IMG/VR virus record: IMGVR_UViG_3300017722_005389
Length of the DNA stretch: 64,000 nucleotides
Reading direction: 5' to 3' (one strand)
Source of the DNA: a virus
Lineage: Duplodnaviria; Caudoviricetes
The stretch's first letter is position 1; every line of letters begins with the position of its first letter. Positions 5,164-49,006 of the stretch are shown here, piece after piece. Under the pieces are notes generated by a model that was given only the letters and a program-made list of their open reading frames with translations, did not search any database and was not told the DNA's origin. A program made the translations under genes and the position numbers.

Positions 5164-5604
5164 ATGAAGGTAGTTATAAATGACAAAAAATTCAAAGTAA
5201 AAGTTCAAAATTCTCCAAGAGAGATAGAAAGGGGGATGATGTATAAAACGTTTGATAATTCTTTCAATGGAATGTTATTCGTTATGAATTCAAAAGAACA
5301 TTCTTTTTGGATGAAAAATTGTATTATTCCTTTGGATATTATTTTTATCAATGGAGATAAAATAACAAAAATCCATCATAACTGCCCACCTTGTGAAGAC
5401 GAACCTTGTAAAGCCTATAATGGTAGAGGTAATTATGCTTTAGAATTAAAAGGTGGCACTTGCAAAAATTTAGGAATAAAAACAGGTGATATTGTTTCAT
5501 TGCCATCACATCTTCATGCCAATAAGAACGATGAAAATTCAAAATTAAAAAATCTTGTAAAAAAGATAGTCAAAGAGGAATTAAAAAATAAAAAGTTATT
5601 CTAA
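5164..5604 (+). CDS. DUF192-family protein
   Basis: RGMMY...GMLFV...SFWMKNCIIPLDIIFI...YALELKGG; TATTTATA at 5153-5160. Confidence 0.8.
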   Translation: MKVVINDKKFKVKVQNSPREIERGMMYKTFDNSFNGMLFVMNSKEHSFWMKNCIIPLDIIFINGDKITKIHHNCPPCEDEPCKAYNGRGNYALELKGGTCKNLGIKTGDIVSLPSHLHANKNDENSKLKNLVKKIVKEELKNKKLF

Positions 5605-5627
5605 AAGATATTTATATTAAAAATAAT

Positions 5628-5969
5628 ATGAAAATTAGATTAAGCGAATTAAGACAAATTATTAAATCTGTTATTAAAGAACAAAGTACCACAGGAGAAA
5701 ACATTTGTTCTAAATTTATATTAATTAGTAAAGACCAATTTATGAAAGAAGCATCAAAACTTTCATTAAATACTGGTAGTGATACTGATGAAGCTAAAGT
5801 TACTGTTATGAATAGCAAAAAAATTTATAAGTTTAATGGTACTAAAGATGAAGCAAATAAAAATTTATCATGTATCGGTATGAAAATGGGTGTAAGTAAT
5901 TATGATTATTACGAGCCAGGTTTATATTCAAAACAAAAACCAGGATATTTTTATATAGGCGTTTACTAA
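5628..5969 (+). CDS. Leader-bearing putative internal head protein
   Basis: MKIRLSELRQIIKSVIKEQ; TATTTATA at 5609-5616. Confidence 0.6.
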   Translation: MKIRLSELRQIIKSVIKEQSTTGENICSKFILISKDQFMKEASKLSLNTGSDTDEAKVTVMNSKKIYKFNGTKDEANKNLSCIGMKMGVSNYDYYEPGLYSKQKPGYFYIGVY

Positions 5970-5987
5970 ATAATAAAATTTTTAAAT

Positions 5988-6022
5988 AAAACCTCTTTGG
6001 AACTTTCTAAAGAGGTTTTTTG
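5988..6022 (+). terminator. Intrinsic terminator
   Basis: AAAACCTCTTTGGAA-CT-TTCTAAAGAGGTTTT plus T tail. Confidence 0.7.
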
Positions 6023-6048
6023 TTTCCAAAGAAACAAAATAGTTTTTG

Positions 6049-15164: not shown

Positions 15165-16220
15165 ATGTATTTAAATGAAACAGATTCGAGTTCTTCAGGA
15201 AGTTTTGAAGCTTCATTTGGAGGAAAAATGATAAAAAGAAGTTTCCACCCTTTTTATCCTTTAGAACAAAAAACACAAAAACGTAAAAAAAAGAAAAAAA
15301 TGAAAAATATCACAATTTCTGAAATTGAAAACATCGCTTTAAAAGCACTTATTTTCGAAGAGGTATATAGCGAAAAACCAGTTGAACCAAAAGGAAAAGA
15401 AATTTCTACAAGAAATATGAAACAAGAAATTTCAAGTTCTAAACCTTCAAAGGCTACTGAAAAAATCAAAAGTAAATCTGGAAAAGAGCATTCTTCAGAT
15501 ATTAAGAGTAGAACTGGTAAAGTAAAAGCTTCAATCAAAAATAATTTGAAAGGTGCCGAAGTTGAAGATGTTAACAAAGATAAAAAAGTTGATGATGATT
15601 ATGAAGTAGAAGCATATCAGAATGGTATGGAAGATATTGCATATGAAAGAATCTCAGATAAACAAAAGCAAAAAATTAAAGACCAGATTAGCGCAAAAGG
15701 TTCGAAAAAAGATCCTAACGCAGAAAAAAGCGGAAAGGTGGCAAAGAAAATGATTGATGGTGTTAAAAAACGTGATAGCTCAAAAGCAAATAATCCTTTC
15801 AATCGCTTAACACAATCAGGTTCTGACATAGAATATACTCAAAAAAGGAATCAGTCTGATTACCGACCAACTAAAAAGACTGCAATACAGGAAAATACAA
15901 TCAAAAGACTTTCTTTCAAAAGAGAGTTTGAAAGTACAAAGGACATGCTTGAAAGAATTCCTTCAAATTATAAAAGTCATGAGAAGATTTTTGAAATGTT
16001 TGATGGTAATAACAAATACAAAGTTCGTTGGGAAGGAAACTCAATTAATGGTACAGGTGTTATATTAGAGCAGCACAGTGAAGCTAAGGAGAATAGAATG
16101 TATGATATGTTCGACAAACTCGTAAATAATGGATTAAACGAAGGTTATAATTCATCTGAATTGAATGAGAATAATATTTTTAAGAGCTTTTTAAATTTTT
16201 CAAGAGAATTAAATGGATAA
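15165..16220 (+). CDS. Late, highly charged putative head/scaffold-associated protein
   Basis: TATTTATA at 15147-15154; several L/I-x-E sites (LNE, IFEE, IQE). Confidence 0.5.
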   Translation: MYLNETDSSSSGSFEASFGGKMIKRSFHPFYPLEQKTQKRKKKKKMKNITISEIENIALKALIFEEVYSEKPVEPKGKEISTRNMKQEISSSKPSKATEKIKSKSGKEHSSDIKSRTGKVKASIKNNLKGAEVEDVNKDKKVDDDYEVEAYQNGMEDIAYERISDKQKQKIKDQISAKGSKKDPNAEKSGKVAKKMIDGVKKRDSSKANNPFNRLTQSGSDIEYTQKRNQSDYRPTKKTAIQENTIKRLSFKREFESTKDMLERIPSNYKSHEKIFEMFDGNNKYKVRWEGNSINGTGVILEQHSEAKENRMYDMFDKLVNNGLNEGYNSSELNENNIFKSFLNFSRELNG

Positions 16221-16629
16221 AACAAACGTAAAAACATTTTACGAAAAGAAAGTCTTTTATGTTCAAAACGAATTCATAAAGGACTTTCTTTTTTTTCTTT
16301 TATACAAGATTGAAAAAACCTATCTTGGCGATGAAATAATGAATATGGAAAATAAACGTGATCATTTTGAATGGTCTGTAAATGAAACAGTTTTAAATTT
16401 CAAGAAGGAAGAAATTCATGTAAACGTTAGTAAAGACTTTATAAGTAAACTGTTCGATACCTTTAGCACGTATTATTATTCTTTGAAAAAAAATCGTAAT
16501 ACTGTTGAAGATTTAAAAATTAGATTTACTAACATCTTTAATTCTTCAATCAGCAAAACTCCAACACAGATTGAAGAGACTGTATTTTATGTAAGACTAT
16601 TCACAAGCCATATGGGAAATAGTTTTTAA
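16213..16629 (+). CDS. Hypothetical phage protein
   Basis: 138-aa ORF, translationally coupled. Confidence 0.6.
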   Translation: MDKTNVKTFYEKKVFYVQNEFIKDFLFFLLYKIEKTYLGDEIMNMENKRDHFEWSVNETVLNFKKEEIHVNVSKDFISKLFDTFSTYYYSLKKNRNTVEDLKIRFTNIFNSSISKTPTQIEETVFYVRLFTSHMGNSF

Positions 16630-44176: not shown

Positions 44177-45010
44177 ATGAAATTCATTTATTCTATCTTT
44201 AGAAAATATAAGTTCTCATTATTACTTATATATTTTTACATGTTAGTTGCACAATTATTATTTTTGGCTGAACCATTCATACTTGGGAAGGCTATTGATG
44301 GATTGTTAACAAAAAATTATATTTGGTTAATAGTATTTTTAGCTGTTGAACTTTTACACAATGTTTTTATGTATCGAAGAATGGTGTTTGATACTAAAGT
44401 ATATGTTAAAATTTATAATGACATAATCTTTAATTTCTTAAGAAACAACAAAGAGGTTGACATTTCAGCTAAGATCGCAAGAACAGATATGTCACGTAGT
44501 ATAATAGGTTTTTTAGAAGGAGATATTCATTTTTTTATAATGGCAATTGTTACTGTCATCGGAAGTCTTTTTTTTATATTTATGCAGCATGCTTTAACTG
44601 GAGTTATTGTAGTTTGTTCGATACTGCCTATTACAATAACTGCAATAGTATTCTATAAAAAAATTGCCCAGTCTACTAAAGTTGGAAACACTCATTACGA
44701 ACAAAAGGCTAGTATTATGCATTCTGAGGATGAATCTCAAATTGATACTTATTTCAAAAGAAGAGCCAGGATCATTGTGATGCAATCCACATTACAAGGA
44801 AGAAATTGGGTTTCATTGAATGTTGCAAAGACAATTTTTCTTGTCTTATCATTATTTATTTTCACAAGTAAAAATATAGATATGACTCAAGGAGAAGCTA
44901 TTGCAATGTACGCCTACCTCAATCAGTTTATAATAGCTTTAATGTCTATTCCAATTGCAATGGAAACTATAACAAGAATTAAAGATGTTATAGGTAGAAT
45001 TAAATCGTAA
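44177..45010 (+). CDS. ABC-transporter transmembrane-domain-only protein
   Basis: LAEPFILGKAIDGLL and about six TM segments; no Walker motifs and no adjacent NBD gene. Confidence 0.7.
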   Translation: MKFIYSIFRKYKFSLLLIYFYMLVAQLLFLAEPFILGKAIDGLLTKNYIWLIVFLAVELLHNVFMYRRMVFDTKVYVKIYNDIIFNFLRNNKEVDISAKIARTDMSRSIIGFLEGDIHFFIMAIVTVIGSLFFIFMQHALTGVIVVCSILPITITAIVFYKKIAQSTKVGNTHYEQKASIMHSEDESQIDTYFKRRARIIVMQSTLQGRNWVSLNVAKTIFLVLSLFIFTSKNIDMTQGEAIAMYAYLNQFIIALMSIPIAMETITRIKDVIGRIKS

Positions 45011-45065
45011 ACAATTGAACTTCTTTAGAAAAAATAATGTTTCTATTTAAAATAAACTCTGTTCA

Positions 45066-45194
45066 ATGTTCACAATAGTAAAAAGGTTAGAAAATGGATA
45101 TATAATCATGGCACCTGATGGTGAAACCGCATATATCACTGAATCACAATATCAAAATTTAAAATTAAAAAATAAGATGTATGAAAAAGTTTGA
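45066..45194 (+). CDS. Small hypothetical protein (42 aa, missed by track)
   Basis: MFTIVKRLENGYIIMAPDGETAYITESQYQNLKLKNKMYEKV*, overlaps the next start. Confidence 0.45.
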   Translation: MFTIVKRLENGYIIMAPDGETAYITESQYQNLKLKNKMYEKV

Positions 45195-45459
45195 AATTGA
45201 AAGTTTAGATTCCGACTATCTTGATCCTATGCAAGTTATGTATCATGCCTGTTTTCAATGCCTCATAAATTTTGTTGAAAAAGAATCTGGATTAAGACAT
45301 TGCACATACAAAGATGATGATCAAAAAAAACATATTGATATAGCTTGTGAACTTTATGTTTGGTGGATAAAAAACCGAGAAGATCTGGATACAGATACAG
45401 ATGAATCTCAAGAAAAATTAGAACAACTTGTCAAAATAAGAAATTTTCTTTGGACTTAA
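45181..45459 (+). CDS. Hypothetical phage protein
   Basis: ELYVWW...IRNFLWT. Confidence 0.6.
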   Translation: MKKFEIESLDSDYLDPMQVMYHACFQCLINFVEKESGLRHCTYKDDDQKKHIDIACELYVWWIKNREDLDTDTDESQEKLEQLVKIRNFLWT

Positions 45460-45471
45460 AATAAATGAATT

Positions 45472-45774
45472 ATGAAAAAAATTGAAGACAAAATTAAATT
45501 TGTAGAGAAGTCAATTCTCGAAATCAAATCAATGATGGAAAAATCTAATGCTTTATATAAATTAGGTGTGGATATATTAGAAGTTGATATGGGTATTGAA
45601 TTAGTTATTGAATCATTTAAGTATATTTTCAATGAAAGTATATGTGAAACGATCTCATGGTGGATATTCGAAGATGTTGAAAAAACCATAGATGTAAATG
45701 GTAAAACATACAATCTTGAAAAATTAGAAGATTTATTAAAATTTATTAATGACGATTATAAAGGTGTATTATAA
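45472..45774 (+). CDS. Hypothetical phage protein
   Basis: ETISWWIFE motif. Confidence 0.6.
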   Translation: MKKIEDKIKFVEKSILEIKSMMEKSNALYKLGVDILEVDMGIELVIESFKYIFNESICETISWWIFEDVEKTIDVNGKTYNLEKLEDLLKFINDDYKGVL

Positions 45775-45873
45775 TTTCTTAGGAGCAATCATTGTTCTTT
45801 TGAAAGGATTTTTTAGTACAAATTTTAGATATAAAACAAATAAAACTAAATGAGACAAATACCTTGTTAGGCT

Positions 45874-46140
45874 ATGTTTAAAATATTCAAGAGTTACATT
45901 AAATGGAAACTTATCTCTATAATAAAGGATAAGCTGATACACTATTTATCGGAGAAACACAATTATTCACAAAGACAAAATGAATGGAAGTGCAAGGTTT
46001 ATGATGGTAAATGCTTAACAAAGGAACGATTTGAAAAAGAGCAAGAGGAGCAGATACGATGGTCGAATGAGCAATGGAAAGTTAATCATCATAAATATGA
46101 AGCGGTTTTGGAGATACTTAGAATAGTGGAGGGTCTGTAA
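45874..46140 (+). CDS. Cassette-borne hypothetical protein
   Basis: ATG lies 2 nt after GTTAGGC; the stop is followed by GTCTATAAC. Confidence 0.6.
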   Translation: MFKIFKSYIKWKLISIIKDKLIHYLSEKHNYSQRQNEWKCKVYDGKCLTKERFEKEQEEQIRWSNEQWKVNHHKYEAVLEILRIVEGL

Positions 46141-46147
46141 ATATTGT

Positions 46148-46361
46148 CTATAACGGTTCTCGGCTATACGTCAGGTTTTTTGCGAATTTGAAACACTAAA
46201 ATTAAAATATATGATGCGAGTAATTGAAATGACACACTCTGAAAAAGTAGAGATGTATCAAATGATTGAAAAAGACAGATTGATAGAAATGCTGATAGAG
46301 GCAAATAATGTTATTAACCGACTAACGGAAGTAAAAAACTTGCGTATAGCCGATGTTAGTG
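46148..46361 (+). repeat. Complete attC-like imperfect palindrome (214 nt)
   Basis: TAAC-GGTTC-TCGGCTATACG-T-CAGG-TTTTTT pairs with AAAAAA-CTTG-CGTATAGCCGA-T-GTTA; asymmetric spacer and one extrahelical T. Confidence 0.75.
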
Positions 46362-46450
46362 GTTCGTTGCCATGCCATCATAACTATATACAAAAAGACA
46401 CTTATTGGAAAAGTTGCACTCATTGTGGAATGATAGCCCCATTAGGGTAA
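46211..46450 (+). CDS. Chimeric ORF crossing an attC-like junction (Cys/His-rich tail)
   Basis: Residues 1-48 lie inside the palindrome; GTT AGT (V49-S50) is the R' box; tail CHH...CTHC. Confidence 0.6.
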   Translation: MMRVIEMTHSEKVEMYQMIEKDRLIEMLIEANNVINRLTEVKNLRIADVSGSLPCHHNYIQKDTYWKSCTHCGMIAPLG

Positions 46451-46508
46451 TGACCACTAACTAAAATATATATACACCTCAAAACAACTCACTTCAAAAA
46501 ATAAAATT

Positions 46509-46886
46509 ATGGAAATTAAAAAATTTGAAATGTACCTAGATGGTGGTACAATTGAACTAACGACAGATAAAGGAATTTTCTGTTTTGACAAAAGAATTAG
46601 AAGTAGTACAAAGGGTAGATTATACGATGGTTATCCTAAAGATGATAATTCTAACCTAATAGAAAATTCAGTTGATTTGGAACAAGAACTAATTGAACAA
46701 TTAAAATTGTTTAAGAGTGACTTCTATCAAAGTTCAATTGATTACTTTATTAACTCAAACAAAAATAATATTAGTGTTAACGAAGTGGAGTTTTGTAATT
46801 GTGGTAATCCAAGTGGTGGACATCATTGCTATGTAGATGAAAATATAATTGAATGTGCTGATTGTGGGAAACAATTACAAAATTAA
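46509..46886 (+). CDS. Chimeric ORF with Zn-finger-like cassette tail
   Basis: ATT AGT GTT AAC junction at codon 88; tail CNC...HHC...CADC. Confidence 0.6.
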   Translation: MEIKKFEMYLDGGTIELTTDKGIFCFDKRIRSSTKGRLYDGYPKDDNSNLIENSVDLEQELIEQLKLFKSDFYQSSIDYFINSNKNNISVNEVEFCNCGNPSGGHHCYVDENIIECADCGKQLQN

Positions 46887-47597
46887 CACTAACTAATCGC
46901 TAACCGCAATACTCTTATATTATTAATATGAATGTAAAAGAATATTTGAAATGATAATATTTATATATAAAAGAAAAGATGAATGATTTGAGAAAGTTTA
47001 TTAAAAATATTATAAAAGAATTTTTAAATGAACAACAAATGTTAAACAGTGATGGTATATGGTATCACGGTAGTGATTTTAAAAAACCAAATTTTGATTC
47101 TGATTTTAAACCTATTTTTTTTACTAAAAGTAAAGAGTATGCTGAAGGTTATGGTAAGTTTGTTAATTCATATAAATTAAACATAAAAAATCCATTAGAT
47201 ACAAGAATAGAAAAAGATTTAATATTTTATAATGAAAAATTCATACCTTGGACTAAAGAGTATAAATACACTGAAAAAGATGGTAGATATAATACATTAG
47301 ATAAAGGATTGGCTGTTCCTATGATAACAGCAAATTTATTGTATCTGTTTTTACGAAAATCAAAAAGAGAAGGATTAAATCATAATTATGATGGTGTTAT
47401 TGTTGATGAATCGGGATTTGAATTTGATAACGAGTTGGCAAAATATTCTTTATTTCCTTTGTCATTCACACAAATTTTAAATATATGAAAAAAGTAGAAA
47501 TGGTAAAAACAATTGAGTTCAAAGAACTAATTGAACAATTAAAATTGTTTAAGAGTGACTTCTATCAAAGTTCAATTGATTACTTTATTAACTCAAA
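46684..47597 (+). repeat. Exact 76-bp direct repeat (46684-46759 and 47522-47597)
   Basis: Both copies encode ELIEQLKLFKSDFYQSSIDYFINS in the same frame of two different ORFs. Confidence 0.95.
46979..47488 (+). CDS. Leader-bearing ADP-ribosyltransferase-like (ART-PolyVal-type) protein
   Basis: MNDLRKFIKNIIKEFLNEQ leader, TATTTATA at 46958-46965; WYHGS...PIFFT..KEYAEGYG...LNIKNPLD...YDGVI. Confidence 0.6.
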   Translation: MNDLRKFIKNIIKEFLNEQQMLNSDGIWYHGSDFKKPNFDSDFKPIFFTKSKEYAEGYGKFVNSYKLNIKNPLDTRIEKDLIFYNEKFIPWTKEYKYTEKDGRYNTLDKGLAVPMITANLLYLFLRKSKREGLNHNYDGVIVDESGFEFDNELAKYSLFPLSFTQILNI

Positions 47598-48027
47598 AAA
47601 AATAAATATGGAAAACTTAAAAGTAAAATACTTAGGCGTTGTTATTGGATATACTTATGATGGGAAAAAAATAGAATTTTTAGATAATGAACATTCTAAA
47701 GAAATTCAAAAAACACTATCAGAAGGTCACACAATAGGTCTATCATCAAGACGAATGGGGACTGTTGGCGAAAATGGTTATGTTAATTATGAAAAAATAA
47801 CTGAGTACAATGTTATCAATCGTCTTGATGAAATAATTAACTCAAAACAAAAAATACAAATGATAACCGAAGAAGAATACTTAAAAGCAAAGCAGATAGT
47901 TCAAGAATATGAAAAACAATTGGATATATCTAATGTTAGTTGTAGTTATATTGATAAATTAGGTAATGATGAACTAAAACAACGTGAAATAGATAGAAAA
48001 TGGGCTAAGGATAGAAATATATTATAA
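47485..48027 (+). CDS. Multi-module chimeric ORF ending in a cassette tail
   Basis: Contains the 76-bp repeat, internal A-rich ATG leaders (MENLK, MITEEEY) and a GTT AGT junction at codon 151. Confidence 0.55.
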   Translation: MKKVEMVKTIEFKELIEQLKLFKSDFYQSSIDYFINSKKINMENLKVKYLGVVIGYTYDGKKIEFLDNEHSKEIQKTLSEGHTIGLSSRRMGTVGENGYVNYEKITEYNVINRLDEIINSKQKIQMITEEEYLKAKQIVQEYEKQLDISNVSCSYIDKLGNDELKQREIDRKWAKDRNIL

Positions 48028-48104
48028 TTACAACTAACTATCGCTAACCGCAATGCTCTTATATTACTAATATTGCTGTATAAGCCTAATAATTTCAATT
48101 AAAT

Positions 48105-48977
48105 ATGATAATATCTATCTCTGGAAAAAAACAGTCTGGTAAAGACACGATTGCTGACATTATAAAGTCACTCATATATTGCCATATTGATGGCACTGAA
48201 CTTACAGAAGAAAATTTTGAATCTATAAGACATTGTAGGATTCATAATTACAAAGTCAAAAAATTCGCAGGAAAGCTTAAAGAAGTTGCAGCAATAATGC
48301 TTGGATGTAATCCTAAAGATTTTGAATCAGAAGAATTTAAAAATAGCATCCTTGGAGAAGAATGGTGGTACTATCAAGATAATGTGAACAATAAGTTTTT
48401 AGCCCCTTATTTGACTAAGTTTAGGTCTGAATCAGAAAATAAATTGTTACTTGAAAACAATTATGCTCTTTTGATGAGAACGACTCCAAGAACATTCCTT
48501 CAGAGATTGGCAACAGATGCTGTCAGAGAAAATTTACATTCTTGTTCTTGGATAAATTCCACCTTAGCAGATTATAACCCCAAAGAATTTTGGGTTATAA
48601 CAGATACAAGATTTGAGAATGAATTAAATGCTATAAAATACAAGGAACCTAAATTTTTTAATATTAGAGTTGAAAGATTACAATCTTTTGAAGATTGGTG
48701 TAACCAATATAAAGATTATGTAACTTTTATCAAAAATTTTGAACACATGGATGATAAGATATCTTCTAATGGTTTTTGGAGTTTATTGCATACCTCTAAA
48801 GGATATTTTAAACCTAATGAAGAAACCTTTACAACTCTAATTAATAATCTCAGTCATGAAAGTGAAACTCAATTAGATCATTATAATAACCTGGATTTTT
48901 TTATTGAAAATAAAGGTTCTATTGGAGATTTAATAGATAGAGTTAAATGGTTTATGATCGAAAATAAATTACTTTAA
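48105..48977 (+). CDS. Deoxynucleoside monophosphate kinase (T4 gp1-like)
   Basis: IISISGKKQSGKDT P-loop, FAGKLKE, PRTFLQRLATD, TDTRFENE, HESE. Confidence 0.8.
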   Translation: MIISISGKKQSGKDTIADIIKSLIYCHIDGTELTEENFESIRHCRIHNYKVKKFAGKLKEVAAIMLGCNPKDFESEEFKNSILGEEWWYYQDNVNNKFLAPYLTKFRSESENKLLLENNYALLMRTTPRTFLQRLATDAVRENLHSCSWINSTLADYNPKEFWVITDTRFENELNAIKYKEPKFFNIRVERLQSFEDWCNQYKDYVTFIKNFEHMDDKISSNGFWSLLHTSKGYFKPNEETFTTLINNLSHESETQLDHYNNLDFFIENKGSIGDLIDRVKWFMIENKLL

Positions 48978-49006
48978 TTTGAAACTGTAAATAACTGTTA
49001 AGTAAT

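Follow-up and report, generated by a model that had tools for sequence, protein, structure and literature searches.

A probable decayed array of integron-like cassettes in a jumbo phage, with hairpin sites that carry a start codon

Introduction

Integrons move complete, mostly promoter-less genes, and their recombination point lies outside the coding sequence. The locus addressed here occupies about positions 46143–48056, on the + strand, of a 64-kb stretch of DNA from an uncultured jumbo phage (IMG/VR record IMGVR_UViG_3300017722_005389; the whole stretch is called the window). It is probably a decayed stretch of an integron-like cassette array, in which hairpin sites carry a start codon and an N-terminal peptide in a fixed reading phase. 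It includes three open reading frames (ORFs), each named by its first position: ORF 46211, ORF 46509 and ORF 47485.

Site-specific recombination inside ORFs is known from the R64 shufflon (Rci, pilV) and from the invertible G/C segments of Mu and P1, where it joins one N-terminus to alternative C-termini. These systems invert reversibly within one genome, between silent alternatives. Unlike them, the phage locus holds no alternative copies, exchange is apparent only from one phage to another, and each C-terminal part is a whole protein unrelated to the others; neither alternative C-terminal segments nor a cognate recombinase, which together define a shufflon, were found in the window. Another class of elements, the promoter-early stem-loop (PeSL) modules of T4-type phages, said to have been described by Arbiol et al. 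in 2010, reportedly marks points where accessory genes are swapped, the exchange being thought homologous. The sites studied here are likewise conserved stem-loop modules where small accessory genes swap between related phages. Unlike PeSL modules, which lie outside coding sequence, they display a linked tyrosine recombinase, complementary cassette ends and, in the present locus, an in-frame junction.

Integron attC sites and attC clusters without integrase (CALINs) have been described on phages (Qi et al. 2023, PMC9892861). One of these sites, P12002L_attC1 from Polaribacter phage P12002L, is a predicted attC for which, in contrast to five other phage attC sites, no IntI1 recombinants could be verified (PMC9892861). 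A review (PMC8876359, citing Hanau-Bercot et al. 2002) presents ORF-11/ORF-18 of the class 1 integron site attI1 as a short ORF with its own translation start, which spans the crossover and serves cassettes devoid of translation signals. ORF-11 is stopped by the TAG inside GTTAG and aids by translational coupling only. In the phage sites, by contrast, GTT is a codon and is read through, which makes the peptide the N-terminal part of the cargo; furthermore, each expanded site of an array does so, not only the integrase-adjacent site. No description of start-codon-carrying sites with a fixed reading phase was found in the literature searched, the nearest cases being the P12002L attC and ORF-11 of attI1.

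The hairpin sites and their cassettes

Related loci are numbered L001, L002 and so on. Searches of IMG/VR with the three proteins of the window gave matches that break off at the limits of the modules. About 130 loci, i.e. 1.14 Mb, were scanned for the pattern TAAC, spacer, stem ... stem, spacer, GTTA, with nine control cores in place of GTTA as background. The scan returned 360 GTTA-core sites, against 19–57 for the control cores, and 128 sites with loops of 30–150 nt, against 2–7. A site opens with ATT-N5-TAAC and has, 5 nt further on, an 11–13 bp stem that encloses a loop; 2 nt separate the second stem arm from the closing GTTA-N5-AGT. Both boxes (ATT-N5-TAAC and GTTA-N5-AGT) are 12 nt long, and a G:T pair between their outer triplets, AGT and ATT, is conserved.

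Like integron attC sites, these sites carry inverse-core and core boxes (TAAC...GTTA, here with fixed 5- and 2-nt spacers) and a second, covarying stem that is kept in structure and not in sequence: it measures 9–13 bp, and more than 25 distinct arm sequences each occur with their partner. Mismatches within the stems are mostly G:T on the gene-sense strand (123 vs 23 internal mismatches, counted over related sites that are not independent). A compact form, first seen in L006, consists of TAAC, 5 nt, an 11-bp stem, the 11-nt loop TCGTTTTAATG, the matching stem, TT and GTTA; behind it, the next gene starts on its own 30–50 nt downstream. P12002L_attC1 belongs to this compact family and has the same TCGTTTTAATG loop. 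The compact pattern was found on at least 120 IMG/VR contigs and, among 185,579 prokaryote species genomes, on 11 contigs only, mostly short and from metagenome-assembled genomes of Bacteroidota. Judging from these searches, the hairpin site is common in phages of Bacteroidota and appears confined to phages. This near absence from prokaryote genomes distinguishes it from integron attC sites, as does the ability of its loops to hold a start codon and an N-terminal peptide.

The likeness to integrons extends to the cassettes, which form arrays of small accessory genes and whose start is complementary to their own far-end box. Among 164 consecutive pairs, 56% have at least 4 contiguous complementary nt between the hexamer that follows GTTA and the one that precedes the next TAAC (34% match at 6/6), against 3% within one site and 5% in random pairs, and all three bodies of the window show it. 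For putative cassettes of this kind, own-end complementarity is the classical signature of passage through a circular form. It cannot decide which box is the crossover point, since with either polarity the two flanks are enclosed by consecutive crossovers.

Start codons in the loops and the fixed reading phase

Among the 65 sites that have a loop of 30–150 nt with an ATG in it, 62 read GTT as a codon (phase 0), against three in phase 2 and none in phase 1. Genes after compact hairpins, which provide an internal control, have no preference (54, 36 and 61 in phases 0, 1 and 2); the phase rule is therefore specific to start-donating sites. An earlier note on the window, made from its letters alone and hereafter called the original prediction, had proposed from three ORFs that the codon phase at the in-ORF box is conserved. 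The rule thus extends over the family, and the random phase that had been named as the observation to be feared was not seen.

The peptide that precedes the junction, called the head, has a median length of 22 aa, and the part behind it, called the body or tail, a median of 53 aa (range 10–354). In 54 of 70 bodies there is no Met within the first 10 codons, and 12 bodies stop at the TAA of TAAC. Codon differences from relatives indicate that the bodies are real coding sequence under purifying selection: synonymous and non-synonymous differences stand at 7:0 and 11:1 for tail A, the body of ORF 46211, and at 7:1 for tail 2, that of ORF 46509. The head of ORF 46211 (N1) is less constrained (4:1 to 5:9). 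A promoter in the loops was considered and is not claimed, (T)AnnTTTG-like motifs being present in only 11 of 59 loops.

The three junctions of the window

The (G/A)TT-AGT codons lie exactly where the original prediction had placed them: GTT AGT at 46355 (codons 49–50 of the 79 in ORF 46211), ATT AGT at 46770 (codons 88–89 of the 125 in ORF 46509) and GTT AGT at 47935 (codons 151–152 of the 180 in ORF 47485). Its description of short tails without an ATG of their own, closed by a stop codon in or just before a TAAC box, also agrees with what was found. The tails have 30, 37 and 29 aa and no in-frame ATG near their start, and the stops lie 0–6 nt ahead of the closing box or within it. Every tail is bracketed by a perfect 9–10 bp inverted repeat of the form GTTAGnnn / nnnCTAAC, with TTAG/CTAA as common core, and the inner triplets of the boxes differ by tail (GGT, GTT, TGT) and covary across each pair.

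Pairs of the form TTAGTnnn...nnnACTAA number 4 in the window against 0.58 expected, and 8 of 300 Markov simulations give at least 3. Taken alone, these window statistics are suggestive, of moderate strength and not conclusive; the decisive support comes from the related loci. The phase shared by the three ORFs says little by itself, because GTTAG read as xGT-TAG gives a stop, which excludes one phase. A chance origin of the box pairs is ruled out by the family-wide statistics together with compensatory changes in relatives (GTTAGT/ACTAAC vs GTTAGC/GCTAAC); relative to the window, the boxes of tail A in L006 and L010, GTTAGCGGT and ACCGCTAAC, carry such a change. Mini-transposons with terminal inverted repeats were also ruled out, since each body has repeats of its own and the sequences that they enclose are unrelated.

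The original prediction had placed a crossover inside each of the three ORFs. Only the site of ORF 46211 (site 1, 46151–46358) is complete; ORF 46509 and ORF 47485 are decay products.

ORF 46211, an intact unit of hairpin, head and body

As had been proposed, ORF 46211 starts inside an attC-like loop: its ATG and leader, together with codons 1–44, lie in the 172-nt loop of a complete hairpin (Table 1). Similarity to L006, L007 and L008 has its left boundary at the outer box. In L007, the head is 98% identical as far as codon 51 and is followed by an unrelated tail, and in L010 an unrelated head is followed by tail A. A five-way alignment of the DNA places the limits at the boxes: on the head side, similarity starts at TAAC and stops at GTTAG, and on the tail side it starts at GTTAG and stops at CTAAC.

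The AlphaFold model of ORF 46211 shows a long helix over residues 9–50 (pLDDT ~90) and three short strands in the Cys/His tail (pLDDT 61–77). The predicted fold of tail A is compatible with a small zinc-ribbon-like tail, which is not proof of metal binding.

Two relatives show further combinations of these parts. In L009 (1968–2180), the N1 head carries a different right arm (...NLQRPPV instead of ...NLRIADV) and is followed by another Cys-rich body; there is therefore mosaicism also within a head. In L006 (3714–3800 and 4440–4461), GTTAGCGGTTCGT comes behind a compact hairpin and repeats the opening 13 nt of tail A without a difference; next comes a self-starting gene of 217 aa, taken from its sequence alone for a DNA methyltransferase. 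This gene closes with ATGACCGCTAAC, the same end as that of tail A, and therefore two unrelated cargos have one box pair in common.

Reassortment of heads and bodies

The original prediction had come with a check, namely to look among homologues for abrupt divergence after the ...V and for the same tails behind different N-termini. Both were found: the in-ORF box is a real exchange point, after which sequences diverge abruptly, and relatives include head–body chimeras. The proposal of domain shuffling instead of whole-gene capture is not supported. Across the family, the tails are whole cargo and the heads are short generic peptides, largely set by the hairpin stem; this is therefore a traffic of whole-gene cassettes in which the site donates the start codon.

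Clustering of the 62 distinct head–body pairs gives 24 clusters of heads and 57 of bodies, and six head clusters occur with 2–19 unrelated bodies. The 26-aa head of module C, a part of ORF 47485 (MITEEEYLKAKQIVQEYEKQL.IS.V), precedes four different bodies. Conversely, tail A is found behind two unrelated heads and tail 2 behind three N-termini, including that of ORF 46509. L015 and L023 share ~99% identity over the stretch between TAAC and the end of GTTAGTGATAGT and are unrelated to either side of it, with a breakpoint exactly behind the 12-nt box.

Near-identical compact hairpins on different contigs keep the downstream flank and differ upstream in 22 pairs; the reverse is seen in 2. A gene lying upstream of its own attC, as in integrons, is thus not what flank sharing displays here: the hairpin moves for the most part together with the gene that follows it, so that the genes are inverted compared with bacterial cassettes, and the TAAC box is the more active exchange point. 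This preference agrees with the position of the recombinase described below, which sits beside the TAAC-only end. Most near-identical hairpins have neither flank in common. Because of these, and because the same body occurs with different heads, the in-ORF box must also be a breakpoint; exchange at this box is either a minority pathway or conversion.

The linked recombinase

Homologues of a tyrosine recombinase (~40% identity) are encoded in 18 of ~120 loci, always on the same strand as the array and directly behind its last TAAC box. In L010, a recombinase of 280 aa directly follows tail A (5187–6026). This position, at the downstream end of the array and on the gene strand, is unlike that of integron integrases. 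The enzyme is, like them, a tyrosine recombinase related to Xer and IntI. It differs in its size (265–285 aa), in falling below the IntI cut-offs and in being devoid of the IntI-specific insertion, the extra domain that characterizes IntI. Indeed, it scores 173.8 bits with TIGR02249 (IntI; cut-off 265) and 199.7 with the XerA model (cut-off 220), and matches archaeal XerA and VchIntIA (2a3v) equally well, the alignment with VchIntIA being split in two stretches. From its sequence, it scores as Xer/IntI-like, below every curated cut-off.

In several loci, the last cassette and the ATG of the recombinase gene are separated by a conserved box (TAAC, then TA.ATTATATA..ACACC), which might correspond to the integrase-proximal attI site of integrons. 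The window has a copy of this box behind tail A, and ORF 46509 occupies the position of the recombinase gene; for these reasons the recombinase of the window has seemingly been lost or replaced. In L001, a fragment of 36 aa with 56% identity to the Xer-like recombinase adjoins, on the opposite strand (5507–5614), the homologue of module B of ORF 47485, which suggests a decayed recombinase gene.

ORF 46509 and ORF 47485, decayed units and read-throughs

In L003 and L004, the counterpart of ORF 46509 stops at a TAA (..NSKQK, then stop), and in L004 and L011 the box ATTACTTATAAC comes next. The A-tract of the window is one base shorter than that of the relatives and reading continues into body 2 through the junction ATTAGT, which has no stem partner. 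Since the window runs ...AATAATATTA and then GTGTTAAC..., body 2 has lost its usual hairpin and head through a deletion between two TTA triplets. In other loci, body 2 is 95–97% identical and lies behind two ordinary 32-aa heads, P0001 and P0002 (..LNLFGV and ..LLSLFGV).

ORF 47485 had been treated as one gene with a junction at codon 151. It is a read-through of three modules, A, B and C, and the relevant gene is module C, from ATG 47860. The left arm and TAAC box of module C, both present in L002, are lost in the window. A direct repeat of 88 nt (97%; 46684–46771 and 47522–47609) makes the 3' end of the gene of ORF 46509 the opening of ORF 47485, and its right end falls on the junction between A and TTAGT. 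Both read-throughs hinge on the length of an A-rich run (46750–46770 and 47595–47610) before a TAA that is in frame in L003, L004 and L001; the differences in run length could be real 1-nt changes or homopolymer sequencing errors.

Bodies 2 and 3 are each followed by an orphan left arm, for which a search for right-arm partners found none. The two belong to a repeat of 45 nt (87% identical; 46896–46940 and 48040–48084), which corresponds to the orphan left arm and the start of the loop. The gene behind the first resembles ART-PolyVal (PF18760, E 1.3e-4, below cut-off) and the gene behind the second a dNMP kinase (PF21448, E 8e-9).

Proposed mechanism and alternative explanations

According to the reading that we favour as probable, each joint of the array would be a folded hairpin site served by the Xer-like tyrosine recombinase that other phages encode at the array end; we infer from sequence the action of the recombinase on the hairpins, the strand that folds and the translation of the heads. 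The anatomy of the sites, the fixed phase, the purifying selection on the bodies, the natural chimeras and the linkage to the recombinase are shown by the sequences themselves. In expanded sites, the loop holds an A/T-rich leader, the ATG and a short peptide, whose last residues are encoded by the right arm and by GTTA, with GTT always as Val. The cargo ORF usually has no start and finishes within the following TAAC box, itself a source of TAA, or shortly ahead of it. The two ends of the hairpin module behave as exchange points, the TAAC side oftener, and as the GTTA side lies inside the ORF, the fixed phase keeps each head–body combination in frame. In the window, ORF 46211 is an intact unit of this kind, body 2 has lost hairpin and head and joined the preceding gene, and module C has kept the right arm only. 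Such arrays depart from the usual view of integrons by a hairpin that carries leader, start and first residues, by an exchange point inside the ORF in a fixed codon phase, by their own Xer-like recombinase and by their apparent confinement to phages. If this mechanism holds, it would explain how phages of Bacteroidota trade in very small start-less accessory genes, and would provide a natural plug-in expression module.

Several points weigh against this reading. The only published member of the family, P12002L_attC1, failed with IntI1, and a recombinase was sought in the 64-kb window and none was found. Descent from a single ancestral site could be enough to account for the fixed phase. Near-identical hairpins before unrelated genes could result from concerted evolution or gene conversion and not from exchange at GTTA, and informative same-body pairs are few. 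Finally, the G:T bias of the stems fits folding of the sense-strand DNA but also an RNA structure. A stronger version, in which the fixed GTT phase is a selected design and the recombinase or a second-strand pathway regularly swaps cargo at the in-ORF box, seems to us rather doubtful. If it were true, any start-less cargo could be inserted in frame after whatever promoter, leader and head, the site being a universal translation start, and the system would be a phage-specific integron variant that generates head–body combinations combinatorially.

The same observations can be arranged differently if hairpin, head and body form one unit, i.e. an inverted integron cassette whose site lies 5' of the gene, in which crossover takes place only at TAAC and GTTA is a non-cleaved inner box. 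Chimeras would then arise by occasional homologous recombination or gene conversion in head and stem, and the phase would be inherited. The co-inheritance of hairpins (22 downstream vs 2 upstream pairs), the recombinase and conserved box that adjoin the TAAC-only end, and the joint presence of the N1 hairpin and tail A in the window and L006, with different neighbours on both sides, all suit this arrangement. It nevertheless appears unlikely, as the heads of tail A (window and L006 vs L010) share almost no sequence, which makes homologous exchange between them implausible, tail 2 lies behind two different heads at 95–97% body identity, different bodies follow head-type hairpins of at least 92% identity in 31 pairs, and the breakpoint lies precisely at the end of the 12-nt box. 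Breakpoints with only 4–9 conserved nt, too short for homologous exchange, also make it improbable that the hairpins are mainly RNA elements (terminator, processing or stability, start masking), with the body repeats as an mRNA panhandle and swaps by ordinary homologous recombination, similar to what is proposed for PeSL modules. The bias of stem mismatches to G:T on the sense strand, the location of sites directly after stop codons and the conserved G:T pairing of the outer triplets AGT and ATT are what RNA elements would give. They would not give a tyrosine recombinase linked to the arrays in 18 loci, nor flanks that are complementary at cassette ends and not within the same site, and no Rfam family matches 45000–49000 at E≤1.

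The original prediction, in its strongest form, implied active switching of C-termini within the phage's own genome, comparable to the shufflon of R64 and the G segment of Mu. Its sole support consists of the fixed phase and of the inverted boxes that bracket the tails. The window is devoid of second copies and silent alternative tails as well as of a recombinase in its 64 kb, two of the three sites are half-sites, and inverting tail A gives, by manual reading of the sequence, a stop after ~13 codons. Such switching is therefore hardly credible.

Coordinates and surroundings of the locus

Table 1. Positions in the window of the hairpin site, heads, bodies, boxes and modules of the locus
Feature	Position	Strand	Remarks
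Outer box of site 1, TAAC side	46143–46154	+	ATTGTCTATAAC; TAAC at 46151
Left stem arm of site 1	46160–46170	+	TCGGCTATACG
Loop of site 1	46171–46342	+	172 nt; A/T-rich leader, ATG 46211, head codons 1–44
Right stem arm and core of site 1	46343–46358	+	CGTATAGCCGA (46343–46353), then T, then GTTA core at 46355; read ...R-I-A-D-V
ORF 46211	46211–46450	+	79 aa; 49-aa helical head and 30-aa body (tail A) with CHH...CxHC motif
Body A with its own inverted boxes	46355–46461	+	
Boxes of tail A	46355 / 46453–46461	+	GTTAGTGGT / ACCACTAAC; perfect inverted repeat
Pre-recombinase box, window copy	46462–46482 (with TAAC from 46458)	+	TAAAATATATATACACC...; match to L025, L085 and L054
ORF 46509	46509–46886	+	125 aa; codons 1–85 are a complete gene in L003 and L004
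Body 2	46771–46892	+	Cys/His-rich; inverted boxes; own hairpin and head absent
Boxes of body 2	46771 / 46883–46892	+	TTAGTGTTAA / TTAACACTAA; perfect inverted repeat
Orphan left arm	46889–46912	+	CTAAC, 5 nt, GCTAACCGCAAT; precedes ART-like gene at 46979
ORF 47485	47485–48027	+	Read-through of modules A, B and C
Module A	47485–47607	+	Includes 88-nt, 97% copy of 46684–46771
Module B	47608–47859	+	Standalone gene in L001 (ends SKQ, then stop)
Module C	47860–48027	+	Standalone gene in L002; starts at ATG 47860
Head of module C, right stem arm	47921–47938	+	TGGATATATCTA, AT, GTTA
Body 3 with its boxes	47935–48038	+	
Boxes of body 3	47935 / 48029–48038	+	GTTAGTTGTA / TACAACTAAC; perfect inverted repeat
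Second orphan left arm	48034–48056	+	87% copy of 46896–46940; precedes dNMP-kinase-like gene at 48105

The window is AT-rich and phage-like (28.8% GC), its + strand holds nearly every gene, and no tRNAs were found. The three ORFs gave no significant match in Pfam; likewise, a search of cultured-phage DNA with the region of the window and a tblastn of a 28-aa head against cultured phages returned no match. An exact 42-mer, used to look for the genome of the window, was absent from IMG/VR and from JGI metagenomes. A pair of boxes, GTTAGTAAA / TTTACTAAC, also occurs at 16426–16533, within ORF 16213–16629 and away from its stop, in AT-rich sequence; it is probably a chance match.

Upstream of site 1, a GTTAGGC box (after TT) is found at 45866–45876, at ORF 45874, the ATG of which starts 8 nt later. 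This box is probably the start of the cassette that precedes site 1; no complementarity links its flank to the next TAAC box. Further upstream (44177–45010), a protein of 277 aa matches the ABC transporter transmembrane family PF13748 (E 3.7e-18), an unusual cargo for a phage.

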